Of a DNA stretch of 64,000 nt, positions 33,252 to 60,463 are shown piece by piece. The position numbers and the translations under genes are program-made. Position 1 is the stretch's first letter. Each line of letters opens with the position of its first letter. Under the pieces are notes generated by a model. It saw only the letters and a list, made by a program, of their open reading frames with translations, was not told where the DNA came from and did not search any database. This stretch comes from an uncultured Bacilli bacterium (GTDB lineage: Bacteria; Bacillota_I; Bacilli_A; RF39; UBA660). The stretch lies in the NCBI GenBank assembly GCA_934096125.1, contig CAKOLB010000004.1, forward strand, positions 55,117 through 119,116, given 5' to 3'.

Positions 33252-34187
33252 GTGAAGTTAAAGACATTTAAAACCTTAGATGAACAAATAGATATTCTAA
33301 CAAAAAAAGGATTAGTTATTGAAGATACTGAGGCTGCTAAAAATATATTGCTTCGAGAGAATTATTTTTTCTTAAGTGGTTATCGTCATTTATTTATGGA
33401 TCCAAGTAATAATAAACGTTACTTAGAAAATACAACATTTGAAGAGTTATTTGCAATGTTTACTTTTGATAGACAACTTAGAAATATTATTTTTAAAAAT
33501 ATATTAATTGTGGAAAATAATTTGAAAAGTATACTGGCTTATGTGATGAGTAAAAACCATGGTTTTAAAGAACATAATTATTTAAATCCAAATAATTTTA
33601 ATAATGACCCTAGACGAAGTAAACAAATAAATGATTTAATAAGAAAGATGAAAAGGCAAATAACTGTTAATGGTAAACAACATACAGCGACTGCTCACTA
33701 CCTATATAATTATGGTTATATTCCTTTATGGGTTGTTGTAAAAGTCTTATCATTTGGGATAGTTGGAGAACTTTATACTGTGCTTCAGCATCAAGACCAA
33801 CAAGAAATTGCCGATGTTTATGGTATTTCCATTGATAATATGGTTTTATATTTACCACTAGTTGCTAATTATCGTAATTTGTGTGCTCATGAAGATATAT
33901 GTTATATAAACAGAACTCAAAAGGAGATTGAAAACACCAAATACCATCGTCTTTTGTATATTCCTTTAGCAAGTGGGGAGTATATATATGGTAAAAATGA
34001 TTTGTTTGCTCTGGTAATAATATTAAAACAATTGCTTGATGCTGATAATTTTAATCTATTTATAAGTGAAATAGCATATGAATTTGATAGACTGGCAGGG
34101 AAGCTTAAAGTAATAGAGATTGAAAAGGTTATGCATGAAATGGGATTTCCAAATAATTATAAAGAAATAGTGAGGTTAGAAAAATGA
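33252..34187 (+). CDS. Abi_2 (AbiD/AbiF-like) abortive-infection family protein
   Basis: N-terminal FKTLDEQIDILTKKGLVIED...NYFFLSGY, IPLWVVVKVLSFG, and YRNLCAHED motif, as in the Abi_2 family. Confidence 0.7.
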   Translation: MKLKTFKTLDEQIDILTKKGLVIEDTEAAKNILLRENYFFLSGYRHLFMDPSNNKRYLENTTFEELFAMFTFDRQLRNIIFKNILIVENNLKSILAYVMSKNHGFKEHNYLNPNNFNNDPRRSKQINDLIRKMKRQITVNGKQHTATAHYLYNYGYIPLWVVVKVLSFGIVGELYTVLQHQDQQEIADVYGISIDNMVLYLPLVANYRNLCAHEDICYINRTQKEIENTKYHRLLYIPLASGEYIYGKNDLFALVIILKQLLDADNFNLFISEIAYEFDRLAGKLKVIEIEKVMHEMGFPNNYKEIVRLEK

Positions 34188-41136: not shown

Positions 41137-41528
41137 AGAGGAAACTTCAGTTCATGCTAAATAAAAAACATATTTAGTTTGAATAGTAAAAAGTGTTAAG
41201 TTTTTCTCTTTTTTTTTACAGTAAATAAGAGTAAAATTTTTAATTATTTAAAAATAAATTAAATATATTAAAAATAATTATATCTATTTTTTTCTTTTCC
41301 AAATGAAATTTTCTTATTACGACAAAAAAACAAATAATTACAACTCATAGAATGATGTGTGATCACTTCAAAAGAAATTTTTTGCTCTTGTTGAATTTTT
41401 TTGCTTGGCGATGATATAAATTACTTAGGTGGTAAGTATTTACAATATAAGAAAATATGATAAACTAGTTATACCAAGTATGACTATAACTTTAAGATTA
41501 AGTTAGTAGTTTAGTGGTGGAGGATGTT

Positions 41529-42089
41529 ATGTTCGAAGTAGAATTAAATTATATACGAAATGAGAGAATAAGGGAGAGTGCTAAAGTTTTAATTGATGGA
41601 TTGCCAGAGTACTTTTTTCGGATTGCTGCCTCTTCAACGGGAAAATATCATCCTGCTTTTGCCTTGGGTGAAAGAGGTTTAGTAAGACATACTAAAGTAG
41701 CGGTGAGAATAGCGTATGAGTTATTTCAGATTATACCTTATGATCGTTTATTTTCTAGTGATGAAAAAGATATTATGATATTAAGTTTATTGATACATGA
41801 TGGAATAAAAAAAGGATTTACTGAAGAAAGATATACTAGGTTTGATCACCCTAATTTGATAGCAGATTATGTGGAGTTAAATAAAGGGAAAACTAGGCTC
41901 AGTGAAAAAGAGATAGATTTAGTAAAGCATGTTTTAAACTCCCATATGGGAAAGTGGAATACAAATCCTTATAGTAAGGTTGTGCTTAAGCTTCCAAATG
42001 ATAAATATCAATATTTTGTGCATATGTGTGATTATTTAGCTAGTCGTAAGTTTTTAAATGTTAATTTTAATGGTGATAATATAGAATAA
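41529..42089 (+). CDS. HD-domain protein
   Basis: GKYHP and LLIHDGIKKG motifs. Start at ATG 41529 behind GGTGGAGG. Confidence 0.6.
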   Translation: MFEVELNYIRNERIRESAKVLIDGLPEYFFRIAASSTGKYHPAFALGERGLVRHTKVAVRIAYELFQIIPYDRLFSSDEKDIMILSLLIHDGIKKGFTEERYTRFDHPNLIADYVELNKGKTRLSEKEIDLVKHVLNSHMGKWNTNPYSKVVLKLPNDKYQYFVHMCDYLASRKFLNVNFNGDNIE

Positions 42090-42200: not shown

Positions 42201-42247
42201 ATGAATGATAGAGCTTTAAAAAAGGTGGTTTTGGATGCCGGACATGG
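42201..42247 (+). pseudogene. split Amidase_3-LysM hydrolase gene, segment 1 of 3
   Basis: ATG 42201 encodes MNDRALKKVVLDAGHG. The frame then enters unrelated sequence and stops at TGA 42270-42272. Confidence 0.8.
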
Positions 42248-42269
42248 GAGATACTGTTATTCTACACAA
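42242..42269. repeat. attL of element 1 (core ACATGG plus P' arm TTATTCTACACAA)
   Basis: TTATTCTACACAA (42257-42269) is the exact inverted complement of TTGTGTAGAATAA at 50551-50563. Confidence 0.7.
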
Positions 42270-42317
42270 TGAATAGAAACTATCAGAACTAGTTGATTTA
42301 CATGAAAATTAAACTTT

Positions 42318-42345
42318 AAAGAGATATTTGAAAAAGTATCTCTTT
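42318..42345 (+). promoter_or_regulatory. perfect 9-bp inverted repeat upstream of mob (candidate oriT hairpin or insulating terminator)
   Basis: AAAGAGATA-N10-TATCTCTTT followed by TTGCATATT, 29 nt before the mob start. Confidence 0.3.
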
Positions 42346-42373
42346 TTGCATATTAAAAAAAAGGGGGAATTAT

Positions 42374-43633
42374 ATGAGTTATGCAATATTTAGAAGTCAA
42401 CCAATAAATACACTACAAGATTTAGCGCAAATTGGTTCACACAATAAAAGAGAAAAGAAAGCTTATAAGAGCAATCCAGATATAAAATTAGATAGAAGTA
42501 AGGATAATATAGAATTAGTAAAATGTGCTGAAAAATATGTTAAAAGATTTTACGAATTAACTAAAGACTATAAAAAAGAACATGAAGAAAGACAAAAGAC
42601 AATGCGAGAAGATAGAAAAAAATCCTATTATAAAATGCTTAATGATGCTAGAAATGTAGTAGCAGATGAATTGTTATTTACAAGTGATAGTTTATTCTTT
42701 AAAGATAAAAGTAAGAAAGAAATATTAAGGTGGGCTAATACTTGTATGGATTTTGTTTATAATGATTTAGGTTATACTAAAGAACAGGTATTACATTCTA
42801 CTATTCATATGGATGAAAAAACACCACACATTCATTGTGTAGTGATTCCACTAGTTAAAAAATTAGATAAAAGAACTAATACAGAAAGATATACTATCTC
42901 AAAAAAGCAATATATCAAAAATAACGAGCATTTAAGTGAATTACAAGATAAATACCATAATAGATTAGTTAAGGCTGGTTTTGATCTAGAAAGAGGTTTA
43001 AAAGGCAGTACAGCAGAGAATATAAATATAAAAGAATTTAAAAAAATGACTAGAAGGTTAGATAAGTCATTAGAGAAAAGTACACTATTATTAAATGATG
43101 ATTATAATGACTTAAAAGTTAAATTAAATAAAAGTAAACCTACAATAACTGGCAAGGAAGTTAAAATAGATAAAGATACTTATCAAACATTAAATAAATT
43201 TATGAGTACGGCTAAAAGAATAATAGAAGATATTCCTAAAACACAATCAATGGTAAAAACTTTAGATGAGTATACCAAAATCTTTAGAAGTACGCAAAGA
43301 GAGAATATTCAATTAAAGAAAGAAGTAAATAGACTTGAATTAGAAAAAGAAGAAATCAAACAAGAAAATAATAGACTAGAAAATCTTATGTATAATTTAC
43401 TTCAAAGATTAAAAGATTTATTTAAAAAAATTCTTCATATAGGTACTGATAAAGAAAAAGATAATGTATCAAAAGAAATAAAGTATCATTATGATAATAA
43501 TTATTATAACGATTTAGATTTATGCTATATTTCTAAGGGAACAACTAAAGAAAGAGATATATTTGAACACATTGGTTATATCAAAAAAGGGTATAACAAA
43601 GAAAAAGAAGAAGATTTTGATATAAATAGATAA
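42374..43633 (+). CDS. mob: MobV-family (Mob/Pre) relaxase
   Basis: N-terminal HNKR motif, HMDEKTPHIHCVVIP (HxDExxPHxH) motif, and a coiled-coil C-terminal half. Confidence 0.8.
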   Translation: MSYAIFRSQPINTLQDLAQIGSHNKREKKAYKSNPDIKLDRSKDNIELVKCAEKYVKRFYELTKDYKKEHEERQKTMREDRKKSYYKMLNDARNVVADELLFTSDSLFFKDKSKKEILRWANTCMDFVYNDLGYTKEQVLHSTIHMDEKTPHIHCVVIPLVKKLDKRTNTERYTISKKQYIKNNEHLSELQDKYHNRLVKAGFDLERGLKGSTAENINIKEFKKMTRRLDKSLEKSTLLLNDDYNDLKVKLNKSKPTITGKEVKIDKDTYQTLNKFMSTAKRIIEDIPKTQSMVKTLDEYTKIFRSTQRENIQLKKEVNRLELEKEEIKQENNRLENLMYNLLQRLKDLFKKILHIGTDKEKDNVSKEIKYHYDNNYYNDLDLCYISKGTTKERDIFEHIGYIKKGYNKEKEEDFDINR

Positions 43634-43699
43634 GTCAAAACAAAAACGGACTTTTTTCGTGGTATAATAAAGAAAAACTTGTTATTTTTGGAGGTAGTT

Positions 43700-45910
43700 A
43701 TGAACAAAGAAAATAAAATTATAAATTTTAAAAATGAAGATTCAAAGAAAAATATTTCTTTAGAATTAGATAAAAAAATGATTTTTATTTACGGTAAAAA
43801 TGGTAGTGGCAAAACAACTTTTTCTAGATCGAACGATTTGGATAAAAAATATGTATTTAATGAAGACTTCGTATATAAAAATGTTTATATAATAGACGCT
43901 GAAGGAGCAAAAATTGATTCAGGTGTTAAAAATAATTTTTCAGAGTTGCTTGTTGGAGAAGATGTTGTTCTATTAAAAGAAAAACAAAATAAATTAGAAG
44001 AAATATATAAAGAATTAAATACTAAAAGTAATGATAATGAAACATTTATCAATTCTAGTTTAGCAAGTAATGGTATTCCAAACAGTTATAATTTTTTAAA
44101 GGAAAAAGTTGATGAAACTTTTAATTATGATGAAACAAAAACAATCGAAGAACAAATGGAGATATATAAGAGCGATTTAGAATTGGAACAGACTATTACA
44201 AATGATAAAGAGTTAGAAATCAATGTGAATCAAATAAAGAAACATGAGAATATTAAATTATTAATAGAAAAAATAAAAAAAATACCATTGTTAGAGGAGT
44301 TTCTTTTTTCAGAGGATTATCCAATACTATTGAAACTTAATTCTGATTTAGACATTATTAATACAAATATTCAAAACATTAAAAGTTTAGAAGAGTTAGG
44401 GAAAAAGAAAAGGGTAGAAAAAAATGATTTTTCTATTATAAGAGATTGTATAACATTACAAGAAAAAGTGGGAACTGATATTTGTGTATTATGTGGTAAT
44501 ACTGAAATTAAAGCAGGTATAGAAGAATGGAAGAAAATATTTCAGGACAAAACAGTAAATTTAAAAACGAAAGTAATATCAGAATTAAATGATATTCTAA
44601 AAAATTGTAAAACTATTATTGATGATAGAAAAGTATATGAACCTGTTGCACCTGGTACTATTAACAATATAATAATATTTATAGGAATTATAGAAAACGC
44701 TTTAAAAGAAGTGAATTTAGGCAATGTTTTAGAAATTAAATATCAAGAAATCGTAAGAGAAAAATATACTGAAGACATTATTCAAAAGTATAAAACTATT
44801 GCAAATTACGTATTAAAGAAATATAAAGATAAAACTATTTTCTTAAATTCATCACTTAAAAGTGTAGGTGGTAAAATAAAAGTAATAAAAGAAAACATAG
44901 AAAAAATTTTAAAGCTAAATGCTGACACCCATAAAGAATCAATAAACTCTATTCTTAAAGATTTGGGATTAGATAAAGAAATAACCGTTGGTGTTGATAG
45001 ACTAGGCGGTAAAATAAAATATTCACTAAATGTAGTTAATAACAATTTATCAAAATTGAGTGATGGGCAAAAACATAAATTAGCTTTGGCAATATTTTTA
45101 AATACTATTAAAAATGAAGATTTAAAAGGTAAAACAGTTGTGTTTGACGACCCTGTTGTTGCGCTTGATGAACTAGGATATCACTTTTTTAAACAATATG
45201 TTATAAAAAATATAATGAATAATCCTAACATAGAAGAATGCCCTAATCTTATTATATTAACTCACAACTTTAATTATCTTTATATACAAACAAGTAATAT
45301 AATAATTAGTCCTAATTTACAAGACAATACAAAAATATTGAAATTAAATTCAGATGGATTTAAAGAATTAGATTTTGAATTGTTTAAATTAGATGATATC
45401 GCATTATTTAAAAAATGCTTAGATAATATTAAGTATGAAGATGAATTGATAGACTTAAGTAGTTTATACAATAAAGTTTTTAGAGAATTTTTGGATTTAA
45501 AACTAAGAATACTTGGAAATCCATTAAATGGTAATCCAGCAGAAGAAATAAAGATAATAGTATCTGATGAACAAACAAGAAAATTGTTGCAGGAACAAAG
45601 TAATAAGTTAAGTAGTTATTCAAAAAATAAAAATATAACAATAGAAGAATCGAAAGAAGGTTTTTGCTTATTATCAGATATGCTAAAGACAATAGGGTTT
45701 GATGAATATATTCTGCCTCAAAACATTGATTCAATTAAAAATATTGTAAAGAGGGAAGAAATAATTTATTCAGATATATTTTATATTATTCATGAAATAG
45801 CAAATATTTTAAGAAATGAAGATAATAAATATAAAAATTATATAAATTATTTAAATCATCCAAGAATATCATTTACTAAAAATATGATGTCAACATCTAT
45901 GGATGCATAG
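43700..45910 (+). CDS. AAA_13 / RloC-PrrC-like ABC-type ATPase with zinc-hook insert (putative anticodon nuclease)
   Basis: Walker A GKNGSGKTT and a long K/E-rich coiled insert with CVLC (CxxC). Signature LSDGQKHKLA, Walker B VVFDDPVVALDE, and H-loop LTHN. The ~200-aa C-terminal domain has FREFLD and YLNHPR. Start at ATG 43700 behind GGAGG. Confidence 0.55.
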   Translation: MNKENKIINFKNEDSKKNISLELDKKMIFIYGKNGSGKTTFSRSNDLDKKYVFNEDFVYKNVYIIDAEGAKIDSGVKNNFSELLVGEDVVLLKEKQNKLEEIYKELNTKSNDNETFINSSLASNGIPNSYNFLKEKVDETFNYDETKTIEEQMEIYKSDLELEQTITNDKELEINVNQIKKHENIKLLIEKIKKIPLLEEFLFSEDYPILLKLNSDLDIINTNIQNIKSLEELGKKKRVEKNDFSIIRDCITLQEKVGTDICVLCGNTEIKAGIEEWKKIFQDKTVNLKTKVISELNDILKNCKTIIDDRKVYEPVAPGTINNIIIFIGIIENALKEVNLGNVLEIKYQEIVREKYTEDIIQKYKTIANYVLKKYKDKTIFLNSSLKSVGGKIKVIKENIEKILKLNADTHKESINSILKDLGLDKEITVGVDRLGGKIKYSLNVVNNNLSKLSDGQKHKLALAIFLNTIKNEDLKGKTVVFDDPVVALDELGYHFFKQYVIKNIMNNPNIEECPNLIILTHNFNYLYIQTSNIIISPNLQDNTKILKLNSDGFKELDFELFKLDDIALFKKCLDNIKYEDELIDLSSLYNKVFREFLDLKLRILGNPLNGNPAEEIKIIVSDEQTRKLLQEQSNKLSSYSKNKNITIEESKEGFCLLSDMLKTIGFDEYILPQNIDSIKNIVKREEIIYSDIFYIIHEIANILRNEDNKYKNYINYLNHPRISFTKNMMSTSMDA

Positions 45911-46068
45911 TCTTTTTTGAAAAATGGATATATAAAGATACATTTTAGTAACACACTACGATATTGACAGAGCCAATAACGATGTGTGCCAAGGGGATTG
46001 TCCCTTTGGAAACCCTATTAGCTCTATCGCCACTTTCATTGCTAAAGCAACAAAACGTGCCACGAGCT

Positions 46069-46103
46069 AAAAAGACTGACAAAAATTAATTGTCAGTCTT
46101 TTC
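46069..46103. terminator. bidirectional hairpin terminator
   Basis: AAAGACTGACAA-N7-TTGTCAGTCTTT perfect 12-bp stem flanked by A and T runs. The stop of the minus-strand XRE gene lies in the loop. Confidence 0.65.
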
Positions 46104-46361
46104 TGATGGAATATCATCAAATAGTTGTCTGATGTCTATTCCTAAAGCATCAGCAAATTTACCTATGGTTTCTAATGTTGGAGTTTTATCAATGCTTAAG
46201 CATTCTAAATCTCGAACATATCCATGAGTCAGTTCAGTTAAATCAGCTAATTCTTGAAGTGTATAACCACGTATAAGTCTGTATTTTCGAATGTTTTTTC
46301 TAACTTGAATAGATAAAATTGTTTTTGAATATCTTCTCATAGAAGTTATACACCTCCTCAC
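46086..46361 (-). CDS. XRE-family HTH transcriptional regulator
   Basis: HTH region LIRGYTLQELADLTELTHGYVRDLE. 91 aa. Confidence 0.75.
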   Translation of the reverse strand: MRRCITSMRRYSKTILSIQVRKNIRKYRLIRGYTLQELADLTELTHGYVRDLECLSIDKTPTLETIGKFADALGIDIRQLFDDIPSEKTDN

Positions 46362-46448
46362 ATTTAAATTATTTCATAAAAATTTTAAAAAATATGTCGC
46401 CTGACAGAAGTTTTTGTGATATAATTAAAATGAAAGGAGACTGCTTTT

Positions 46449-46925
46449 ATGAAGAAATGCAAATATTGTCAAACTGAAATTGACTCAAAAGCAAAAATTT
46501 GCCCAAACTGTAAAAAGAAACAAGGTAAACCAAAATGGTTAATAGCTTTAATTGTTATTATTGTAATAATGATTATTGCATCTGTTGCTGGAGGTAACGA
46601 AGAGAATGCTAAGGAAGGAAATGTTTCAAACGGAGGTAATAAGCCAACAGAAAAATTTACTTATGAAGTAACAAAACAATATGCAGATGAATATGGTATG
46701 TCTTATTATATAGAAGGTAGTGTAAAAAATAATAAGGATAAAGATTATTCATATGTTCAAATTGAATTTGTTTGCTATGATGCAGAAGGCAATAACCTTG
46801 GAACTGCTATTGATAATACAAATAATTTACTAGGAAATCAGACTTGGAAATTTAAAGCAATGGCTATGTTTAGTGATGCTGAAACTGTTGATCATTGCGA
46901 TTATCATGAAATAACAAGCTGGTAA
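46449..46925 (+). CDS. zinc-ribbon / TM / FxLYD-like domain protein
   Basis: CKYC...CPNC ribbon, one TM, and an extracellular beta-rich domain with IEFVCYDAEGNNLG (FxLYD-like). Confidence 0.45.
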   Translation: MKKCKYCQTEIDSKAKICPNCKKKQGKPKWLIALIVIIVIMIIASVAGGNEENAKEGNVSNGGNKPTEKFTYEVTKQYADEYGMSYYIEGSVKNNKDKDYSYVQIEFVCYDAEGNNLGTAIDNTNNLLGNQTWKFKAMAMFSDAETVDHCDYHEITSW

Positions 46926-47035
46926 AATAGTTGGAAGTCTTTTTAAGACTTCTTTTTGTTAGATTTTTTTACCAAAATAGTCGTTTTATATTTGTTTTAT
47001 GTTATAATAATATTTAATGAAAAAAGGGTGGTTTT

Positions 47036-47335
47036 ATGTATCAATTATTGAGTTTATTCAGTTTTCTTATTAGGGCATATTTGTGTTATTGCACAATAGA
47101 TAATATTCCAATATTAGCTAATCCGATATTAAATAGTATTTTAGGGGAAGTAATATCCTTATATACTATTTTGTGGGCAATAAGTTATTTTGTTGTTGGA
47201 AGATTTTATGATAAAGGTTCTGAACCCTTGTTAGGTGTTATTTTATATTTTATTGTATATGTTGTAATTCTGGGAATTACATATTTATTGTTGTTATTAT
47301 TAACATATATTGGAGTTTTACCAATAGTTATATAA
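47036..47335 (+). CDS. small hypothetical membrane protein
   Basis: 99 aa with three hydrophobic segments. No family recognised. Confidence 0.4.
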   Translation: MYQLLSLFSFLIRAYLCYCTIDNIPILANPILNSILGEVISLYTILWAISYFVVGRFYDKGSEPLLGVILYFIVYVVILGITYLLLLLLTYIGVLPIVI

Positions 47336-47364
47336 ATAAAAAAACTTATCGTTGTGATAAGTTT

Positions 47365-47904
47365 TTATAGGTTTATTCTATCATCAGGTAATTTTGAGTA
47401 ATCATATTTTTCAGCACACATTTCTAAATCTTCGTAAATAGAGGTTAATTGTGCTAATATTTTTTCGGGTGGAAGTAATTCTTTATAATAATCATAATCT
47501 TTAAGTAAAAGCATCATTTGGAATATTCTTGTTCTGCAATCAGCAACTTTAGTTCTTTTCTCATAAGAATCTTCTAATAAATCCAATTGAGATTCTCTAT
47601 ATTGTTTTACTAATTCCTTTATATTTTTAGGAGTTTTATGTTTTGAAGTGTCTTTGAAACTATCTAGAATATCACTATAACCAGCAGTAGTTAAAAGAAA
47701 TTCTAAACTTATTTCTAATACTTCAGATAAACTTCTTAACATATCTATATCTGGTTTTTTAATATTACCTTTTTCAAGTTCATTATATGTAGAGTGATGT
47801 GTATTGATTAAACGAGCTACTTTTCTTTGAGAGTAGCCTTTTTTTGTTCTAGCAGTCCTTAATATTTTACTTAATTCTTCAAGATTAGCATTATTATTTT
47901 CCAT
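47365..47904 (-). CDS. XRE-family HTH regulator with C-terminal extension (element repressor candidate)
   Basis: HTH region KKGYSQRKVARLINTHHSTYNELEKGN. Divergent from the HTH_36-like ORF across an operator-bearing intergenic region. Confidence 0.7.
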   Translation of the reverse strand: MENNNANLEELSKILRTARTKKGYSQRKVARLINTHHSTYNELEKGNIKKPDIDMLRSLSEVLEISLEFLLTTAGYSDILDSFKDTSKHKTPKNIKELVKQYRESQLDLLEDSYEKRTKVADCRTRIFQMMLLLKDYDYYKELLPPEKILAQLTSIYEDLEMCAEKYDYSKLPDDRINL

Positions 47905-47971
47905 TTAAACCACCTCTAAAATGCTTTCTTCCAATAACATAATACCATAACGAAAATTAAAAAGCAATAAT

Positions 47972-48037
47972 TTTGTCGGTTATTCTTGACAAAATTATAA
48001 TTACAATGTATATTATAGTTGTCGGGCAATCTTGACA
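47972..48037. promoter_or_regulatory. two copies of a 20-bp operator-like site overlapping -35 elements
   Basis: TTGTCGGTTATTCTTGACAA (47972-47991) and TTGTCGGGCAATCTTGACAA (48018-48037). Each is a TTGTC...GACAA inverted repeat containing TTGACA. The first TTGACA has a 17-nt spacer to TATATT. Confidence 0.5.
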
Positions 48038-48134
48038 AAAAAGGGGGATAGTAATAAAGTAGATTGCTAATGCGACTAATGTTCTTTGAAAATTTACACA
48101 AGTCTTTAAAGGTTAATTAAAAGGGGGTGATAGC

Positions 48135-48638
48135 ATAACAGAATCTATAAAAGATGGGTTTTGGATTATACCTGCAAAAGTAGGTATAGATGATGCACTC
48201 ACATTACAAGATAAATTACTATATGCTCAAATCTTATCATTAACAAGACAAGATGGATTCTGTTTTGCTACTAATTCTTATCTATCTAATTTAAATAATG
48301 TTACTCCAAAAACAATTTCTAACAGTATTTCTAATCTTAAAAAAAATAATTATATACGAGTTGAATATCACAAGGAAAAAATAAATAAAGATAAAAGAAA
48401 AATATTTGTAACTGATAAGGGGGTATGGAAAACAAATCCTGGGGATATAGAAAAAAATGTTAATACCGGTATGGAAGATAATTTCCAATATAATAATATA
48501 AAGAATAAAAAGATAAAAAAATATAATACCAATAATAATGTTCCTTGGTGGCTAGATAAAGAAATTAAAGAAAATCCTGCATCTCTAGAAGAACAAGCAG
48601 AGATGGAAGCACTACTAAGCGAATTTAAAAAAGATTGA
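48135..48638 (+). CDS. HTH_36-type winged-helix protein (plasmid/ICE replication- or regulation-associated), no canonical start codon
   Basis: The frame is open from 48117 to TGA 48636-48638 and encodes ...WIIPAKVGIDDALTLQDKLLYAQILSLTRQDGFCFATNSYLSNLNNVTPKTISNSISNLKKNNYIRVEY. The strong SD AAGGGGG (48121-48127) lies 7 nt before ATA 48135. The first in-frame ATG/GTG/TTG is not until about 48470. Confidence 0.55.
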   Translation: MTESIKDGFWIIPAKVGIDDALTLQDKLLYAQILSLTRQDGFCFATNSYLSNLNNVTPKTISNSISNLKKNNYIRVEYHKEKINKDKRKIFVTDKGVWKTNPGDIEKNVNTGMEDNFQYNNIKNKKIKKYNTNNNVPWWLDKEIKENPASLEEQAEMEALLSEFKKD

Positions 48639-48714
48639 AAAGGAGTTGGTTTTATAAATAAATACAAGACTAAATCATAAAATTTAATAAAAAGGAAAAG
48701 GGGGAATTATAAGA

Positions 48715-48846
48715 ATGGAGGTAGTACTTAAGGCAAAACACACATTTAAAACTGATATATCAAACGAAGAATTATTTAGAGATAGATTTAACGAGATATT
48801 GTTAAAAGTTATATTGCATCTTGAGCAAAATTACCAAAGTAGTTAA
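48715..48846 (+). CDS. small ORF (43 aa) immediately upstream of recombinase 1
   Basis: ATG 48715 preceded by AAAAGGGGG. Encodes MEVVLKAKHTFKTDISNEELFRDRFNEILLKVILHLEQNYQSS. Too short to appear in the track. Confidence 0.35.
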   Translation: MEVVLKAKHTFKTDISNEELFRDRFNEILLKVILHLEQNYQSS

Positions 48847-48937
48847 AAAAATTATAAATAACTATCAAAAAGGGGTATAATATAAGTTGTAGTCGATTTA
48901 GTTCTGATAGTTATACACAGAATTGGAGGATATAACT

Positions 48938-50533
48938 ATGAGACTAAGAGTTGGTATTTATGGGAGGTTATCACAAGAGGATATAGATAAGATAAACAAA
49001 GAAGATGAAAGTGAAAGTATCCAAAATCAAAAAAGAATGTTATTAGAGTATGCTTTAAAAAATGATTGGGATGTAGTTGATATTTATATTGATGAAGATT
49101 ATTCAGGTGCTGGAGTTTATAGACCAGAGTTTGAGAGAATGCTAAAAGATTGTGAAAATGGAAAACTAGATATAGTTTTATGTAAGAGTCAATCAAGATT
49201 CTCGAGAGATATGGAAATAATTGAAAGATATATAAATAACAAATTTAAAGAATGGAATGTTAGATTTATTAGTTTAGTAGATAATATAGATACTGATAAT
49301 AAATCTAATAAGAAATCTATTCAAATATTAGGACTAACTAATGAATGGTATTTAGAAGATTTATCAGATAACATTAAAAGAACAATTAGGAATAAAAAAG
49401 AGTCTGGACAATTTACTGGTTCATTTGCTCCCTATGGTTATTTAAGAAGTGAAGAAGATAAACACAAATTAGTTATTGATCCTATTGCTTCAATCATTGT
49501 TAAAAAGATATTTGAAATGTATAAACAAGGTAATGGTTATACTAAAATAGCAACTTATTTGAATGATACTAATGTTCCTAGTCCTTATGAACACAAAAAA
49601 GCAAGTGGTAGTAAATTTGTATGTGGAAATGTTGGAAAGGAAAAATCATATTGGTATTCAGATACAATTGCTAAAATCTTAAAAGATGAAGTATATATTG
49701 GAAATCTAGTACAAGGAAAAACAAGGCATATAAGTTATAAAAATAAAAAATCAGTTCCTGTTCCTAAAGAAGATTGGATAATTGTTAAAAACACACACGA
49801 ACCTATAATAGATGAAGATACTTGGAATATAGTTTCTGCTAAATTTAAAGGTAGGACAAAGCCAAGTAAATCTGGGGAAATTCATATGTTTACTAAAAAG
49901 GTTTATTGTGATTGTTGCAAAAAAATATTTTATAATGGTTATTCTAAATCAGGAAATGGGAACAAGCATTATTATTTAACTTGTAAGTCTAGAAAATCAG
50001 GGGTGTTTTGTGAAAATAATCTATCTATTAGAGTAGATAAATTAAAAGACTTTATCCTTAATGAGATTAATGAATATATCAAAGTTTATCATAATTCTAA
50101 AGCTTTAAATGAGAAATACCAAAAATTAAATACTAAGAATAATAAAAATGAGATTCAAGAACAAATTAAAACTTTGGAAAAACAACAAACTGAATTAGAA
50201 AAATCACAAAGTAAAAAGAATTCTTATTTAAGAAAATTATATGAAGATAGAATAGAGGGTTTCATTACTGATGAGCAATACAAAGCTTTTAGTAAAGACT
50301 ATGATGATGAATTAAATGAATTGCAAAACAGAATTCAATTAATAAAAGATGAAATCACTCTCTTAAATCAAAGGCACAGTGATATGATTGATAGAGATAA
50401 AATATTTAATAAATATAAATCTATAAAGGAATTAGATAGAAGTATATTAGATGATTTTATAGAAAAAATATATATCGGTGCAGTAGATAAAGAAACGAAT
50501 GAACGAGAAATAAATATTGTATGGGCCATATAA
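48938..50533 (+). CDS. large serine recombinase (resolvase domain, recombinase domain, zinc ribbon, coiled coil)
   Basis: VGIYGRLSQED catalytic-Ser motif, SIQNQ, YIDEDYSG, and SRFSRD. Cys cluster CDCC...C...C. C-terminal coiled coil with FIEKIYIG...REINIVW (DUF4368-like). Start at ATG 48938 behind GGAGG. Confidence 0.9.
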   Translation: MRLRVGIYGRLSQEDIDKINKEDESESIQNQKRMLLEYALKNDWDVVDIYIDEDYSGAGVYRPEFERMLKDCENGKLDIVLCKSQSRFSRDMEIIERYINNKFKEWNVRFISLVDNIDTDNKSNKKSIQILGLTNEWYLEDLSDNIKRTIRNKKESGQFTGSFAPYGYLRSEEDKHKLVIDPIASIIVKKIFEMYKQGNGYTKIATYLNDTNVPSPYEHKKASGSKFVCGNVGKEKSYWYSDTIAKILKDEVYIGNLVQGKTRHISYKNKKSVPVPKEDWIIVKNTHEPIIDEDTWNIVSAKFKGRTKPSKSGEIHMFTKKVYCDCCKKIFYNGYSKSGNGNKHYYLTCKSRKSGVFCENNLSIRVDKLKDFILNEINEYIKVYHNSKALNEKYQKLNTKNNKNEIQEQIKTLEKQQTELEKSQSKKNSYLRKLYEDRIEGFITDEQYKAFSKDYDDELNELQNRIQLIKDEITLLNQRHSDMIDRDKIFNKYKSIKELDRSILDDFIEKIYIGAVDKETNEREINIVWAI

Positions 50534-50550
50534 TTTAGTCCATACAGGAC

Positions 50551-50580
50551 TTGTGTAGAATAAACATAACCTCCACATGG
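50551..50580. repeat. attR of element 1 (P arm TTGTGTAGAATAA plus core ACATGG)
   Basis: Lies 18-47 nt after the recombinase stop. The arm is the inverted repeat of 42257-42269, and the core is identical to 42242-42247. Confidence 0.7.
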
Positions 50581-50806
50581 TGGTGATGATCCGGGGACTA
50601 TTGCAAATGGAATAACTGAAAAAGATTATACTTTGAAGATAACAAATTATATTCACAACAGATTAGATGAACTTGGAGTGCCAAATAAATTATCGAGGAG
50701 TACTGATGAGACTTTAGATGCCAGTAGTAGGCCACAGAGAATACAAAGTCTTTATGGAAATGGGAGTGATGTGATTGTTGTGTCTAATCACATAAATGCA
50801 GGGGGA
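50581..50806 (+). pseudogene. split Amidase_3-LysM hydrolase gene, segment 2 of 3
   Basis: Continues in frame from segment 1: (G)GDDPGTIANGITEKDYTLKITNYIHNRLDELGVPNKLSRSTDETLDASSRPQRIQSLYGNGSDVIVVSNHINAGG. It then diverges and stops at TAA 50816-50818. Confidence 0.8.
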
Positions 50807-50828
50807 CAGGACGCGTAATATGTGGTTA
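50785..50828. repeat. attL of element 2 (B arm TAATCACATA, core GGA, P' arm TATGTGGTTA)
   Basis: TAATCACATA at 50785-50794, GGA at 50804-50806, and TATGTGGTTA at 50819-50828. The last is the inverted form of TAACCACATA. Confidence 0.6.
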
Positions 50829-50928
50829 ATCGTAGGCGCAGTGTATAACTTTAATAAGCTTCTTATTTTACTGTATATGATGGTATAATAGATATATCAA
50901 ATAACTTTAAAGATGAGAGGTGAAAAGA

Positions 50929-51840
50929 ATGTTATATATAACTGGTGATACTCATGGAGATTTTTATAGATTTGGTCATTTAGGATTAAATGAAGGTGAT
51001 ATTATGATTATCTTAGGGGATGTGGGTATTAATTATTACTTAGATGAATATGATAAAAAGTTAAAGGAAAGATTAAAAAGATATAATTTTAAATTTTTCT
51101 GTATTCAAGGTAATCATGAAAAAAGACCAGAAAATATTTCAAGTTACCACGAAGTGGAAATGTTTGGCGGTAAAGTATTTGTAGAAGATGAATATCCTAA
51201 TTTAGTATTTGCTAAAAATGGAGAACTTTATAATATTGATGACAAAAGTATTTTAGTAATAGGTGGAGCTTATTCTATTGATAAAGATTATAGAATAAGT
51301 AAAGGATATCCTTGGTTCAAAGATGAACAATTAACTGAGAAAGAGAGACTAAATATATTGGACGAGTATTCTGGTAAACATGTGGATATAATTTTATCTC
51401 ATACTTGTCCATTAAGATATGAACCTAAAGAAAGCTTTAAATTAAGTTTGCCACAGATTGCGATAGATAAATCTATGGAGTATTTTCTAAATGAAGTAGA
51501 GCAAAGAGTAGATTATGGTAAATGGTATTGTGGACATTATCATTTAGAAAAAATTGTGGACAAGTTAGAGTTTATGTTTGGAAGAATTAAAAGTGTTGAC
51601 ACAGGAGAATTTATTCCTAAATATGATTTCCATAATGGCTACAAAATAGTTAGAGATGTATGTAGTCAAAAAGATTATAAATATTGTCCTGAATGTAAAG
51701 GAGATAATATAATTATAGAAAAAGGTGAAGGACATAATATTAATGGTTTAGATTTTATTGCTATCATTTGTAATGATTGTAAAAAAGTTTATGGATTTAA
51801 TGATGTTAATTATAAACGTAATTGTCCTAAAGAATTGTAA
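50929..51840 (+). CDS. calcineurin-like metallophosphoesterase with C-terminal zinc ribbon
   Basis: GDTHGD, GDVG, and QGNHE motifs, plus SHTCP. C-terminal CPECKG...CNDCKK. Confidence 0.7.
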   Translation: MLYITGDTHGDFYRFGHLGLNEGDIMIILGDVGINYYLDEYDKKLKERLKRYNFKFFCIQGNHEKRPENISSYHEVEMFGGKVFVEDEYPNLVFAKNGELYNIDDKSILVIGGAYSIDKDYRISKGYPWFKDEQLTEKERLNILDEYSGKHVDIILSHTCPLRYEPKESFKLSLPQIAIDKSMEYFLNEVEQRVDYGKWYCGHYHLEKIVDKLEFMFGRIKSVDTGEFIPKYDFHNGYKIVRDVCSQKDYKYCPECKGDNIIIEKGEGHNINGLDFIAIICNDCKKVYGFNDVNYKRNCPKEL

Positions 51841-51914
51841 CTGTGTTTACCAAATTTTAAAATTTATGCTATAATTAAGATGTAATAATTATTTGACTAA
51901 GTGTGGTGAGTAGT

Positions 51915-52550
51915 ATGGAGTATAGAAAATATTCATTTAGACATGCAGAAGATATTTTTAAAAACGATAAGGATTTTACTTATTTATGGAATGAAATTTT
52001 GGAAGTGCTTGATAGTATAAGCGATGATGATTTAATTAATGAATTTAACATTGAAACTAGAAAAGCAAAAAGCATTTCCGAAGCAATTAATAAATTAATT
52101 GCAAAAAGGCTAAGTGAAAAAGGATGGCATGAACAAAGTTACATTTTTGCTGACCCTGATTATTCTGATAATAAAGGTACATGGAGATTAGATTTTGCAA
52201 AAGATAATATTGCAATTGAAGTTGCATTTAATCATGGAGGAAATGTATCTTGGAATTTAATTAAGCCAGTATTATCTAGTGAATTAAATCATGTTAAAAA
52301 GGCAATACAAACTCAAGCTGGCGTTGTCATAACAGCAACTGATGCTATGAAAAAAGCCGGTGGATTTGATAATGCTATCGGTACCTATGAAAAATATGTT
52401 GAATATCTAAAACCATTAAATAATTTGTTAACCACACCTATGATGATAATAGGATTAGAACCACCAAAAAAGTTTACTATTGAGCAGAAAAAAGAAGATG
52501 GTAAAATGGTTGGACATGTTAAATTAAAAGAAGAAGATAATAACTTTTAG
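51915..52550 (+). CDS. BglII/BstYI-fold restriction endonuclease-like protein (orphan)
   Basis: WRLDFAKDNIAIEVAFNH...SSELNH...GVVITAT...TYEKY...MMIIGL parallels the BglII core DIDFGKRDTLVEVQFSN...SELFH...IIITK...LVGL as I recall it. The D-x8-E spacing is kept, but the E-V-Q glutamine position is Ala. Confidence 0.55.
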   Translation: MEYRKYSFRHAEDIFKNDKDFTYLWNEILEVLDSISDDDLINEFNIETRKAKSISEAINKLIAKRLSEKGWHEQSYIFADPDYSDNKGTWRLDFAKDNIAIEVAFNHGGNVSWNLIKPVLSSELNHVKKAIQTQAGVVITATDAMKKAGGFDNAIGTYEKYVEYLKPLNNLLTTPMMIIGLEPPKKFTIEQKKEDGKMVGHVKLKEEDNNF

Positions 52551-52601
52551 ACTTACAATTTTGTGAGTCTTTTTATTTTGAAAAAGAAAGGATACGATAT
52601 T

Positions 52602-52895
52602 ATGAAAATAAAAACAAATAGAGAAGAGGGTTATGTAGTTATGGGTAACTATCATCTAAGAGATAAAAAATTAAGCTTAAAAGCAAAAGGACTATTATCT
52701 ATAATGTTGTCATTACCAGACACATGGTGTTATTCCACGCTAGGATTATCTAGTATTTGTGTTGAAAGCAGGGATACAGTTAGAAATATATTAAAAGAAT
52801 TAAAGGAAGCAAAATATTTAAAGGTAGTTGAAAATAGAGATGAAAATGGTAGATTTAATTATGAATATGTAATTTATGAAAAACCCTATATGTAA
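52602..52895 (+). CDS. HTH_36-type winged-helix protein
   Basis: LSLKAKGLLSIMLSLPDTWCYSTLGLSSICVESRDTVRNILKELKEAKYLKV. Same family pattern as the ORF at 48135. Start set to ATG 52602. Confidence 0.55.
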   Translation: MKIKTNREEGYVVMGNYHLRDKKLSLKAKGLLSIMLSLPDTWCYSTLGLSSICVESRDTVRNILKELKEAKYLKVVENRDENGRFNYEYVIYEKPYM

Positions 52896-53069
52896 TAATC
52901 CATGGTATCATTACGGTTACATGGATTTCCGTATGCGGTTATTTATTCACAATAAATTATTTAGAAGTAATTAATAAAACAAATAGATAAAGTCGATAAA
53001 ACCTCTATCGATTCAAAAAAAGAGAAGGTTTTATAGTATAATTTCTCTTTTCATTGGTTAATTTAGCTA

Positions 53070-54467
53070 TTAAATAAATTCTTTTAATATATTTTCTAAG
53101 TATTTACTATTTAACCAAAAACAATGCTTTGTATATTCAGCTAATCCTGTTAACTTGTCTTTTACAGGTAATGGCAAAGTATCTTTTGAGTCTCTAGCAT
53201 GTGGTCTAACATGGCAAACTCCATTATCCCCGATTCCTGGAAAGTTAGTATTTCTTTTACCCATATTATCAATTGATTTAATAATATTTCCAGATAAAAT
53301 AATGTTTTTTGTATTATTCCACATATTTTTCACTTCATTTTCAAGTGTTAGTTCTGGCATGTTCCATAATTTTATACCACTAAAGATATAATCATTATCT
53401 TTCTTTTTAAATATAAAGAACATGTATTTTGTAGTTTCTAATTCTTCTTTTAACTTTGATTCTTCCCAATCAGTTGTTTTAAAATCCATATAATTGAAAT
53501 ATGGAAAAGGCATAGATTCTTTAATGTGTCCATTTTCTTCAACTCTGATTGTTCTTGGAACTATATTTGCTTTTTGGAATTCATCAGTATCACGAAGTCT
53601 AGATTTAACATTAAACATTCTAGCTATCAGTATTCCATTTAAATTTTTTGCATTAGAATCAATATTAAATTCATGCATTAATTGTTTTTGAGTTTTCCCC
53701 TGATATTTCTTGGTAACATTTTCAACAAATTCAGTAAATGATTCACCAGCATTTTTAATAACTTTTTCAACATCTTCATAATTTCCAATATATTTTCTAA
53801 CGAGTCCTGTCATATAAGAAGTTTTTAAACAAAATGCTCTTTGCTTTGCTTTAATTGATGAAAAAGGTTGTTCTCTAACGGATTTTTTATTTGCTCCTTT
53901 TGTACAAGCACCAAGATACATTGTATCTGCTTCTGATATCTCATGGGCTTTTCCTTGTTTAATTTTATTAATTATTGTTTCCCAATCCTTAATAATTATT
54001 GGTAAATCTTCTTTTGGAAATGTAAATAATAACTCGTGTGTTATTCTTAAATCATTTTTATTTTTGTGAGGTTCGTAAAAATACCAAATTATTTGAATTT
54101 TATTATTTTTAAACCAAAAATGACTAGAGTAAAATTCATTTTTATATTCATCCATATAATTAATTATGTTTAGAACAAGTCTTTCTTTAGCTGATAAAGT
54201 ATTGTCTTTGTTTTTCTTATACGGTGTAACTTTAAGTTCTATTCCCGCATCAATAAAGTCAGGCGCAGATATTGAATTAATGTTGTATCCATATACATTA
54301 GTTTCAAATAAATGACCAAAGAAAGCTTTATTAAACTTTTCATCATCTTTGTTATATTCATTGTTATAAATAGTTGTTACATTCATATTATTTAATTCTT
54401 TAAAAGTTTTTCCTAATGCACTTTTAGCTAAAATTTGAATTTCATCTTTTGTGTAACTTTTTGCCAT
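53070..54467 (-). CDS. MutH/Sau3AI-family type II restriction endonuclease
   Basis: N-terminal MutH-like core APDFIDAGIELKVTP (D...E-x-K). The size fits the two-domain Sau3AI type. Divergently paired with a C5 methyltransferase. Confidence 0.7.
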   Translation of the reverse strand: MAKSYTKDEIQILAKSALGKTFKELNNMNVTTIYNNEYNKDDEKFNKAFFGHLFETNVYGYNINSISAPDFIDAGIELKVTPYKKNKDNTLSAKERLVLNIINYMDEYKNEFYSSHFWFKNNKIQIIWYFYEPHKNKNDLRITHELLFTFPKEDLPIIIKDWETIINKIKQGKAHEISEADTMYLGACTKGANKKSVREQPFSSIKAKQRAFCLKTSYMTGLVRKYIGNYEDVEKVIKNAGESFTEFVENVTKKYQGKTQKQLMHEFNIDSNAKNLNGILIARMFNVKSRLRDTDEFQKANIVPRTIRVEENGHIKESMPFPYFNYMDFKTTDWEESKLKEELETTKYMFFIFKKKDNDYIFSGIKLWNMPELTLENEVKNMWNNTKNIILSGNIIKSIDNMGKRNTNFPGIGDNGVCHVRPHARDSKDTLPLPVKDKLTGLAEYTKHCFWLNSKYLENILKEFI

Positions 54468-54636
54468 AAAAATTTCCTTTCGATCTTGTTTTTATCTCAA
54501 AAATAATTTAAAATATATATATAGTGTTGATCTTTTTAAAATATTATTTTATAATTAATATGTAAGAAGTTGATCTTTTCGCTTAAATATATTATAATAT
54601 ATTTAAATATGTTTAACAATTATTAGGAGGCGTTTT

Positions 54637-55875
54637 ATGCAAAAAACAGTAGTAGAATTATTTGCCGGTGTTGGTGGATTTAGATGTGGATTAAATAATG
54701 TAAAATTAAAAGATAATAAAGTTATTGAAAAAGGTAATTGGAATTTTGTGTGGGCGAATCAATGGGAACCTTCTACTAAAACACAAGAGGCTTTTGAATG
54801 CTATTCAAAAAGATTTGGAAAGGATGATGTTAGTAATGTAGATATATTTCAAGTAAATAAAAAAGAGATACCTAATCATACTTTATTAGTTGGTGGTTTT
54901 CCATGTCAAGATTATTCTGTTGCACAGACACTATCTAATAGCAAAGGAATTGATGGAAAAAAAGGTGTTTTGTGGTGGGCAATTGCAGATATATTAAAAG
55001 TTAAGAAACCTCCATTTGTGTTTTTAGAAAATGTTGATCGCTTACTTCTTTCGCCAGCGAGTCAAAGAGGCAGAGATTTTGGAATAATTTTGAGAAGTTT
55101 TTATGAAAATGGATATGATTTAGAATGGCGAGTTATCAATGCGGGAGAATATGGATTTCAACAAAAACGTAGGAGAATTTATATAATTGCATATCACAAA
55201 TCAACTAAATATTGTAAGAAAATGAGAAAAATTGATAAGAAAAATATATTACTTAAGGAAGGTATTTTCATAAAACAGTTTCCTGTAAAAGAGAAAGAGT
55301 TTAACTCAAATGTATCAAGTATTTCAGAATATAAAGATTTAGTCGATGTTAGTGATAATTTTAAAAACCAATTTTATAATTCTGGAGTTATGATAAATGG
55401 TGAAATATATACTGCCAAATTAGAACATAATTGCGATAGTGTATATCAGTTAGGCAATTTAATAGAAACTAATAAGGTTGATGAAAAATATTTCCTTTCA
55501 AAAGATAGAATTGAGAAATTTAGAATATTAAAGGGAAGTAAAAGAATACCTAGAAAAAAGCCAAATGGAGATGATTACATTTATTCTGAAGGTTCAATGC
55601 CATTTCCTGATAATCTAAATGTTCCTGCTAGAACAATGCTGACTTCAGAAAGTGGAACTAGCAGAATGACACATGTTATAGAGGACTATAGAACTAAAAA
55701 ATTAAGATTTTTAACACCATTAGAGTGTGAAAGAATTAATGGATTTCCAGATAATTGGACAAATACTGGGATGAGTGATAAGAAACGATATTTCATGATG
55801 GGTAACGCTTTAGTAGTAAATGTTGTTGAAAAAATAGGGATTGAATTGGAAAAAATAGTAGAAATGGAAGAGTAA
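54637..55875 (+). CDS. DNA (cytosine-5)-methyltransferase, Sau3AI-type (GATC specificity inferred)
   Basis: Motif I ELFAGVGGF, motif IV GGFPCQDYS, motif VI LENVDRLL, motif VIII QQKRRRIYIIA, and motif X GNALVV. WANQWEPS and SPASQRGRDF resemble M.Sau3AI-like enzymes. Confidence 0.85.
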   Translation: MQKTVVELFAGVGGFRCGLNNVKLKDNKVIEKGNWNFVWANQWEPSTKTQEAFECYSKRFGKDDVSNVDIFQVNKKEIPNHTLLVGGFPCQDYSVAQTLSNSKGIDGKKGVLWWAIADILKVKKPPFVFLENVDRLLLSPASQRGRDFGIILRSFYENGYDLEWRVINAGEYGFQQKRRRIYIIAYHKSTKYCKKMRKIDKKNILLKEGIFIKQFPVKEKEFNSNVSSISEYKDLVDVSDNFKNQFYNSGVMINGEIYTAKLEHNCDSVYQLGNLIETNKVDEKYFLSKDRIEKFRILKGSKRIPRKKPNGDDYIYSEGSMPFPDNLNVPARTMLTSESGTSRMTHVIEDYRTKKLRFLTPLECERINGFPDNWTNTGMSDKKRYFMMGNALVVNVVEKIGIELEKIVEMEE

Positions 55876-55984
55876 ATGAAAAAATGTTAAAATTTGGTAA
55901 TTTATCTAAATAGTGTTATAATTTTATACAGAAGATATGCAGTATTTGTCTTTTTAAGATGGATACTGCATTTTTTTGAAGTAG

Positions 55985-59322: not shown

Positions 59323-59333
59323 AATCATGTCCG

Positions 59334-59362
59334 TTGACTGTCCTATAAATTTATGGTAAAAT
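59334..59362 (+). promoter_or_regulatory. near-consensus sigma-A promoter in the hamB-to-59637 intergenic region
   Basis: TTGACT (59334-59339), 17-nt spacer ending in TGG, then TAAAAT (59357-59362). Confidence 0.5.
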
Positions 59363-60209: not shown

Positions 60210-60312
60210 CTAGATTAGTTTGGAATATAACTAATTTTTTTATGTCCTAATTTTGATAATAAAGTCTTATAGTTGTTCTTATTTCATAAAATGAAAGGAG
60301 AGGTGTAGATTA

Positions 60313-60405: not shown

Positions 60406-60463
60406 GAGTTTGTGATATAATGATATTGCTTATTGAAGTTATACACGTTGGAAGGAGTAGTAA

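Follow-up and report, generated by a model that had tools for sequence, protein, structure and literature searches.

What does a gene for a zinc-hook ATPase do when it travels next to a relaxase gene on a mobile element? The question is raised by a 64,000-nucleotide stretch of DNA (hereafter the window) from an uncultured Bacilli bacterium (GenBank contig CAKOLB010000004.1, positions 55,117 to 119,116). Here an 8.3-kb integrative mobilizable element (element 1, 42248..50580), delimited by its repeats, joined flanks, and related copies, carries the open reading frame (ORF) of a 736-aa RloC-like ABC ATPase with a CxxC-bearing coiled coil and a helical C-terminal domain (43700..45910, + strand). 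A first-pass annotation had described the gene as encoding a stand-alone RloC/PrrC-like zinc-hook ATPase without a restriction-modification (R-M) partner in its element. Profile alignment shows homology to RloC-like proteins across the ATPase head, the hook, and the first catalytic helix, and we file the protein under the ABC-ATPase/zinc-hook/HEPN kind, as neither a plain RloC ortholog nor PrrC. We put the probability that the gene is a divergent RloC-type single-protein device for abortive infection or stress response at roughly 60%. The kind of system is already known; what is new is the clade itself, the layout of its putative nuclease, the movement of the gene as a cassette between hsdR slots and mobilizable elements, and an amidase gene interrupted twice.

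Gene and domain architecture

The ORF listing gives the reading frame as TTG 43679 to 45910; a start at ATG 43700 yields the 736-aa product. A GGAGG ribosome-binding site, read off the sequence at 43690..43694 (+ strand), lies 5 nt 5' of this ATG and therefore favors it over the TTG as the start. Conservation was assessed in an alignment of 102 homologs sharing 23-90% identity with the query, and all protein features below are encoded on the + strand. The Walker A motif GKNGSGKTT (residues 32-40, 43793..43819) is invariant at G32, N34, G35, G37, and K38; the ABC signature LSDGQKHKLA (residues 453-462, 45056..45085) is invariant at S454, G456, H459, and K460. The Walker B and D-loop segment VVFDDPVVALDE (residues 480-491, 45137..45172) retains D483, D484, P485, and D490 throughout, and its DDPxxSLD pattern is also present in the canonical RloC-like set. 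The H-loop LTHN (residues 520-523, 45257..45268) has H522 in 99/102 sequences. Cys262 and Cys265 of the CVLC motif (44483..44494), a candidate zinc hook in mid-insert, are the sole invariant cysteines, found in 102/102 sequences. Each motif quoted by the first-pass annotation occurs once in the protein and is conserved in the homologs, and on this alignment the conserved motifs are not chance occurrences.

The two halves of the ATPase head are split by a helical (coiled-coil) insert (residues 87-421, 43958..44962), delimited from an AlphaFold 2 model and Foldseek matches. This separator had been described as about 400 aa of K/E-rich sequence. The length is borne out, with ~410 aa from Walker A to the signature, but the enrichment is modest: K plus E make up 26% of residues 87-421 against 22% of the whole protein. 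In the full-length AlphaFold 2 model (mean predicted local distance difference test score, pLDDT, 84.8), the head is built from strands within residues 7-31 and 428-557, and the insert is bounded by two long helices (87-123 and 360-421), with shorter ones filling the interval. The CxxC falls in an interhelical loop (258-269) near the midpoint of the insert, and the C terminus is all helical. Foldseek matches of the full-length model were Rad50, SMC, Lamassu LmuB, and the retron Eco7 ATPase (E 1e-5 to 1e-3), with no RloC or PrrC entry among the matches listed.

A Rad50-like head, a coiled coil, and a central CxxC are also what a housekeeping DNA repair ATPase of the SbcC/Rad50 type would present, a reading to which we give next to no credence. 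The arms are short, and the 181-aa C-terminal domain is an addition of a kind not found in Rad50 and SbcC (PMC2610378). No Mre11/SbcD-type nuclease or phosphoesterase gene adjoins the gene in element 1 or in any of the sampled homolog contexts, a sample of eight distinct kinds of neighborhood. The nearest Metallophos gene of the window (50920-51840) belongs to a second element, element 2, and has no counterpart in the other contexts. The patchy, mobile element-linked distribution of the family, with ~84 clusters at 50% identity, likewise speaks against a housekeeping role.

Searches of 5.8 billion proteins returned 108 relatives, nearly all of 720-765 aa, unnamed, and metagenomic. A profile search of 1.84 billion cluster representatives gave 84 clusters (50% identity) below 1e-30. 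The next tier, near 1e-20, consisted of AAA_13 proteins of 750-800 aa that aligned only up to profile position ~521. In a scan of species-representative genomes, the hosts were metagenome-assembled genomes (MAGs) of uncultured gut Bacilli, Clostridia, Erysipelotrichaceae, Acholeplasmataceae, and Mycoplasmatales. By tblastn, the protein had no match in PLSDB plasmids or GenBank phages, and a single distant locus was all that the 2.9 million contigs of IMG/VR contained; from this lone locus we take the family not to be phage-borne. One apparent domain shuffle, a protein with a RelA/SpoT-like N terminus and the C-terminal domain of the family (P0176), was rejected: its last 140 aa are nearly identical to those of P0022 and the arrangement occurs once, so it is treated as a truncated gene or an assembly chimera.

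Relationship to RloC and PrrC

Profile databases recognize the ATPase portion of the protein. Pfam AAA_13 passed its gathering score (51 bits against 36), with its best stretch confined to residues 352-540, and the best PADLOC match was PDC-S06 (E = 2.8e-13, residues 353-527 only). Nothing exceeded the cut-offs in NCBIfam, PHROGs held no family for the protein, and the sole match in a PDB sequence search, a DNA ligase at E = 0.023, was of no use. PDC-S06 is itself, on the evidence of its full-length matches, the RloC-like clade, because these carry the published RloC triad: four second-tier proteins (P0234, P0205, P0200, and P0189) match it over their full length at 1e-142 to 1e-223 and contain "RRLLESFLSF ... 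R-x6-(S)H" (PMC2610378). The PADLOC PrrC model also matches three of these four canonical RloC-like proteins, over their C-terminal regions.

The homology of the window family to RloC emerges from the comparison of whole profiles. Using hhalign, the 102-sequence family aligned with 37 canonical RloC-like proteins at a probability of 100% (E = 6.7e-41, 597 columns), collinearly across Walker A, the insert, the CxxC, the signature, Walker B, and the H-loop. The CVLC of the window protein stands opposite CPFCG, in keeping with its initial description as a CxxC like that of Rad50 and RloC. Beyond the head, "KIFRxFLDLKLR" is placed opposite "RxxLE", which pairs R595 with the near-invariant Arg and D599 with the near-invariant Glu of RloC-like proteins. 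The family alignment stops before H720.

The likeness to RloC of Geobacillus kaustophilus and Acinetobacter baylyi (Davidov & Kaufmann 2008; Klaiman et al. 2012, 2014) covers the order of parts (Walker A, CxxC-bearing coiled-coil insert, signature, Walker B "DDP" and D-loop, H-loop) and a helical C-terminal domain that opens with an R-x3-[E/D] helix. The length of 736 aa (~720-765 aa in the family) falls within the 658-897 aa range of RloC, and both are single-gene, laterally mobile, and occasionally linked to R-M genes. The two differ in that sequence similarity ends after the R-x3-D helix, and the His of the window protein lies in Y-x-x-H-[PT]-R, whereas that of RloC lies in R-x6-(S)H. The PDC-S06 models match the window protein weakly (E ~1e-13) and only over residues ~350-550, and the clade occurs solely in genomes of uncultured, low-GC Bacilli, Clostridia, and Mollicutes-like bacteria from the gut. 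Because the His spacing and local motif differ from those published and the RloC and PrrC models miss the C-terminal domain, we do not regard the protein as a plain RloC ortholog.

PrrC of Escherichia coli (EcoprrI) shares an ABC-type NTPase head followed by a C-terminal HEPN-class domain with Arg, acidic, and His residues (the RNase being putative in the window protein), and in some lineages an association with type I R-M. The PrrC side of the initial comparison nevertheless lost ground, for the window protein is twice the size of PrrC, draws no match from the PADLOC PrrC model, and has an Arg-to-His spacing unlike that of the published triad. PrrC proteins are 341-416 aa long and lack a coiled-coil/zinc-hook insert, in contrast to 736 aa with a 335-aa insert here. 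The prrC gene is reported always to lie within an hsd locus, whose R-M enzyme keeps the nuclease silent; the R-M-linked copies of the present gene follow hsdR, outside the locus, and the same cassette is also found apart from any R-M genes. No hsd gene lies within the 64-kb window. Further ABC-ATPase-HEPN fusions have been described, in the APECO1_4465 and ERFG_01251 groups (Anantharaman et al. 2013).

A candidate HEPN-like domain

The all-helical C-terminal domain (residues 556-736, 181 aa, 45365..45907) is the candidate RNase. Two conserved segments stand out. R595-x3-D599-x3-R603, in the FREFLD region (594-599), lies on a single helix (45482..45508), and Y717-L-N-H720-P-R722, the YLNHPR of residues 717-722, lies at the end of helix 709-719 (45848..45865). 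R595, R603, and H720 are present in 102/102 sequences, D599 is Asp in 101 and Glu in 1, Y717 is kept in 100/102 and R722 in 99/102, and D565 and D566 are invariant or nearly so. From this pattern, R595/D599/R603 together with H720/R722 may form an active site. HEPN domains have an up-down core of four helices and carry Rx4-6H, with the catalytic His ending helix 3, an acidic residue in Ex3[KR], and frequently an insert between helices 2 and 3; certain HEPN domains are non-catalytic (PMC3710099). The effectively invariant D599-x3-R603, on an early helix, matches the Ex3[KR] motif (PMC3710099). A large helical insert precedes the His helix, and H720 ends its helix, both of which would fit the HEPN description. 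The candidate counterpart of Rx4-6H is [KR]-[NDH]-Y-x-x-H, present in 75/102 family members. Overall, the modeled fold is suggestive of a HEPN-like domain, although the fold evidence is modest.

Several observations weigh against reading the protein as an RloC-type nuclease. The AAA_13 and PDC-S06 matches end near residue 540-553, before the C-terminal domain, and the PADLOC PrrC model gave no match to the window protein at E <= 1. Aligned in isolation against canonical RloC C-terminal domains, the domain reached an hhalign probability of 3% (E = 0.013, not significant), and a scan of 40 such domains at E <= 10 revealed no recurring Pfam family. The Arg/Glu...His arrangement that had suggested an anticodon nuclease is recovered in its first half, where R595 and D599 align with the Arg and Glu of RloC, but ~120 residues separate the Arg helix from the invariant His, compared with 36-52 in the published triad, and Asp replaces the Glu of that triad. 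Finally, the basic residue of [KR]x4H, five positions before H720 and K or R in 75/102 homologs, is Ile in the window protein. H720, the only invariant His of the domain, stands 120 residues after D599, and N, E, or D precedes it; in RloC the 36-52 residues are counted from the Glu, and the His often has Ser before it (PMC2610378).

Structure and profile searches of the domain were equally sparing. The structure prediction bore out the expected helical insert with its CxxC in a mid-insert loop, but the C-terminal domain returned nothing at E < 1 in Foldseek against PDB. Likewise, the proposed AAA_13 assignment passed the gathering score, yet the PrrC model and the C-terminal domain went unmatched. 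Used as a query for homologs, a profile of the domain retrieved two fragments only. Relatives of ~870 aa (P0202 and P0174) contain "MRKFLESF" and, well beyond it, "NYLKYMRH". The latter is similar to the "NYINYLNH" of the window protein, which suggests a broader group with long spacers.

Such a domain could also be non-catalytic. The protein would then be a DNA-sensing ATPase whose C-terminal domain docks on a restriction enzyme or another partner and modulates or reports R-M activity, the effector acting in trans. That no profile finds a nuclease in the domain, that certain HEPN domains are non-catalytic (PMC3710099), and that the basic residue of [KR]x4H is missing from the window protein all fit this proposal, as does the recurrence of the gene right after hsdR or an endonuclease-methyltransferase pair, described below. 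The invariant Arg/Asp/Arg/His set is, on the other hand, what a catalytic site would conserve. The partners also vary (type I EcoR124_C, type I EcoEI_R_C, type II AlwI), which makes a specific docking partner unlikely, and the cassette is kept under purifying selection on elements without an R-M gene. We consider docking an unlikely account of the protein.

A cassette shared by restriction loci and mobile elements

The genomic setting suggests a gene that moves as a unit. By blastn, the window shares 91% DNA identity with the loci L022-L033 over exactly 43659-45916 (+ strand), with unrelated flanks. The shared block opens at GTGGTATAATA, which is invariant in 4/4 aligned contexts, and closes 6 bases past the stop codon. 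Its start coincides with a promoter-like extended -10 site, TGgTATAAT (form TGnTATAAT; 43660..43668, + strand), ~31 nt upstream of the ATG. A simple -35/-10 scan did not list this site, and we infer its promoter role from sequence. Because a 91% block with unrelated flanks runs from the promoter-like site to just past the stop codon, the gene appears to move as a self-contained, promoter-bearing cassette that comprises promoter-like site, ribosome-binding site, and ORF.

Across the sampled neighborhoods, the gene stands repeatedly beside R-M genes or on mobile elements, and otherwise in islands with Abi, RloB, or HEPN_Apea genes. Two distant lineages have a family member immediately behind hsdR, a third has one behind a type II R-M pair, and three kinds of mobile element carry others. 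In more than 25 contigs, copies at 90% identity (P0003, P0004, and P0005) are found ~140 bp past hsdR, in loci of the order hsdM-hsdS-x-x-hsdR, cassette gene, and then a HigB-like/HTH-M78 pair. The order hsdM-hsdS-hsdR also precedes a 31% relative in an Erysipelotrichaceae MAG, and a 30% relative begins 16 nt past an AlwI-type endonuclease and methylase pair (type II). Among the other relatives, an identical protein (L028) and one at 84% (P0007, 23 contigs) reside on the same kind of element as the window copy, and a 45% relative adjoins a large serine recombinase. A 33% clade (L041-L043, 5012-9190) adjoins an AAA_21-RloB pair and an AbiEi gene, a 32% relative (P0072) sits in a relaxase-bearing island with HEPN_Apea nearby, and a 60% relative lies within an RHS toxin locus. 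The element that carries the 33% clade encodes a tyrosine integrase and Mob_Pre and occupies three different sites.

Some earlier statements need revision. No R-M gene lies inside element 1, as the first-pass annotation had it, but R-M genes are present 2-4 kb beyond the right end of the element, in element 2. The broader picture of a gene standing alone, apart from R-M systems, does not survive the 90% identical copies directly downstream of hsdR and the 30-31% relatives after type I and type II R-M genes. The statement that RloC is often R-M linked disagrees with the defining paper, which gives 8/73 genomes (PMC2610378).

Both the element-borne and the R-M-linked copies are, as judged from substitution rates, under purifying selection, the putative nuclease domain included. 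The ratio of nonsynonymous to synonymous substitution rates (dN/dS) between them is 0.13 overall, with 0.04-0.10 in the head halves, 0.05-0.07 in the C-terminal domain, and 0.21-0.25 in the coiled coil, the least constrained region.

The neighboring relaxase invites a further proposal, in which an SMC/Rad50-like module serves the element itself through maintenance, exclusion of rival elements or plasmids in the manner of Lamassu or Wadjet, or mobilization. The gene adjoins the relaxase gene in a position kept in 23 contigs, and Foldseek placed Lamassu LmuB and the retron Eco7 ATPase among the matches, besides Rad50 and SMC. Yet chromosomal R-M loci that lack a relaxase and a recombinase hold a 91% identical cassette, and it opens at its own promoter-like site and is not fused to the mob operon. 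No conserved LmuA- or JetD-type partner nuclease gene was found in the eight context types sampled. Service to the element is, on balance, highly unlikely to be the function.

The surroundings of the cassette offered further observations. The helix-turn-helix (HTH) gene at 46086-46361 was considered as a regulator or antitoxin and rejected, as the shared cassette stops short of it and the R-M-linked contexts do not have it. Between the stop codon and this convergent HTH gene, the non-coding segment 45917-46085 is conserved with the related element in L034; it holds a GGGATTGTCCC hairpin, lies outside the cassette common to the R-M loci, and could act as a terminator in both directions or encode a small RNA. 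In the type I R-M loci of L022, L029, and L031, which hold the 90% identical cassette (~3800-6700 in L022), variable genes occupy the interval between hsdS and hsdR: 232 plus 297 aa, 380 plus 252 aa, or a 401-aa HEPN_Cthe2314 protein. These intervals look like hot spots for "restriction-linked" cargo.

Proposed mode of action

How a single protein of this design could act is best approached from RloC, an anticodon nuclease that excises the wobble nucleotide under the control of a DNA-dependent ATPase, and for which an internal zinc-hook/ATPase switch and activation by DNA breaks have been described (PMC2610378, PMC3458546, PMC3874168). By analogy to the Geobacillus and Acinetobacter RloC proteins, two protomers would pair through the zinc hook, the ATPase head would sense DNA ends or breaks, and ATP hydrolysis would free a C-terminal HEPN-type, metal-independent RNase. 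The RNase would cut tRNA anticodon loops or another essential RNA, and translation would stop in the infected or genotoxically stressed cell. With such an internal switch, the cassette could work both beside hsdR and as cargo of a mobilizable element, and a linked silencer would not be needed because the switch is internal.

The trigger and control of the gene had initially been called unexplained. The published RloC switch supplies a candidate control, and it may explain lateral transfer without an external silencer (Klaiman 2012, PMC3458546). With R-M linkage rare among RloC genes and the switch built into the protein, stand-alone carriage is the expected state.

A bolder version of the RloC-type reading, which we hold to be doubtful as a whole, would make the C-terminal domain an unrecognized, enlarged HEPN variant with a rebuilt active site (R595/D599/R603 plus H720/R722) and an RNA target unlike that of RloC. 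The gene would be an autonomous promoter-bearing cassette shuttling between hsdR-side slots and site-specific elements, and its product a DNA-break-sensing suicide module guarding the element and possibly backing up the R-M genes of element 2.

Should the RloC-type reading hold, defense-system catalogs detect a clade of RloC-like suicide RNases only partly, a clade whose ~84 clusters (50% identity) come from uncultured Firmicutes and Mollicutes-like bacteria of the gut. The ABC-ATPase/zinc-hook/HEPN design would then extend to a nuclease domain of different layout. The concept of how such systems work is unchanged by this finding, and the biochemical claim is a prediction by analogy. In addition, the locus provides a clean natural example of one defense gene moving as a promoter-bearing cassette, found in a type I R-M locus on one side and a mobilizable element on the other.

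Two elements in one amidase gene

The window is chromosomal, as indicated by genes for MetRS, MurJ, a PcsB-like protein, and HtrA. Element 1 is flanked by ACATGG repeats (42242-42247 and 50575-50580) and has terminal inverted repeats at ~42254-42269 and 50551-50567. Its gene order is a Mob_Pre (MobV) relaxase (42374..43633, + strand; Pfam PF01076, E = 8.4e-28), the RloC-like gene, two HTH genes, and a large serine recombinase (48923..50533, + strand; Pfam Resolvase, Recombinase, Zn_ribbon_recom, and DUF4368). The adjacency of the RloC-like gene to a relaxase gene, noted from the start, is thus plain. Homology to the related copies L034-L037 ends inside the coding sequence of an N-acetylmuramoyl-L-alanine amidase. 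In L035-L037, the same element occupies the same amidase codons, with both junctions or the downstream Amidase_3 gene seen. The insertion site lies between the DAGHG and GDDPG codons of Amidase_3 genes, and the amidase genes differ among the copies. An alternative in which the related elements occupy unrelated sites was rejected, since alignment of the ends puts all of them at the same amidase motif.

In the window, the amidase gene is found in three pieces. The first (42201-42247) encodes MNDRALKKVVLDAGHG, the second (50581-50803) continues with GDDPGT...SNHINAGG, and the third (~62219-63133) continues with GDGAEVIY... and then four LysM repeats. Joining them in silico yields a protein of 394 aa that matches Amidase_3 without a break (residues 9-184 on profile positions 1-173/174). 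By this reconstruction, one Amidase_3 gene is split in three by two independent serine-recombinase elements, and precise excision would be predicted to restore the amidase target. Sporulation genes offer a parallel, in the "intervening elements" that large serine recombinases cut out of them.

Element 1 resembles Tn4451/Tn4453 in its large serine recombinase and MobV/Mob_Pre relaxase, small size, short terminal direct repeats, and cargo gene between mob and recombinase (PMC5704250). The cargo of element 1 is a defense gene, whereas that of Tn4451/Tn4453 is catP/catD, and its insertion is site-specific in Amidase_3 genes, in contrast to their low specificity.

Element 2 (~50804-62218, ~11.4 kb) lies 75 codons further into the same amidase gene and has CTAATCACATAAA at both ends (50786-50798 and 62197-62209). 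It encodes the metallophosphatase (Metallophos) mentioned above, a BglII-like endonuclease (51903-52550), an HTH_36 protein (52563-52895), a MutH/Sau3AI-like endonuclease on the minus strand (53070-54467), and a C5 cytosine methyltransferase (54637-55875). Beyond two unknown ORFs, it also encodes a DEAD/ResIII helicase (56929-59322) and, further on, the second large serine recombinase of the locus (60464-62089). The locus accordingly displays two defense-carrying serine-recombinase elements stacked in a single cell-wall amidase gene.

Minor features surround these elements. An inverted repeat with a T-run behind it, AAAGAGATA (n11) TATCTCTTT (42318-42346), stands just within the left end of element 1, ahead of the relaxase gene, and is conserved in L034-L036; it could be an origin of transfer (oriT) or a terminator that insulates the element from the amidase promoter. 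Toward the recombinase gene, a frame open over all of its ~155 codons (48165-48629) shares 58% identity with the HTH_36 protein that precedes the recombinase in L034. Near its beginning there is no ATG, GTG, or TTG, which kept it off the ORF listing, and its start codon may be non-standard or lost. It is followed by a conserved 43-codon ORF (48715-48843). Just outside the left end of element 1, between an ABC exporter pair and the amidase start, a gene at 41514-42089 encodes a 191-aa protein assigned to PHROG 5889, with no Pfam match, whose "HDGIKK" motif suggests an HD-type hydrolase. Further upstream, an Abi_2 (AbiD-like) gene (33252-34187) directly precedes an HtrA-like protease gene, a pair that also precedes the related element in L034.

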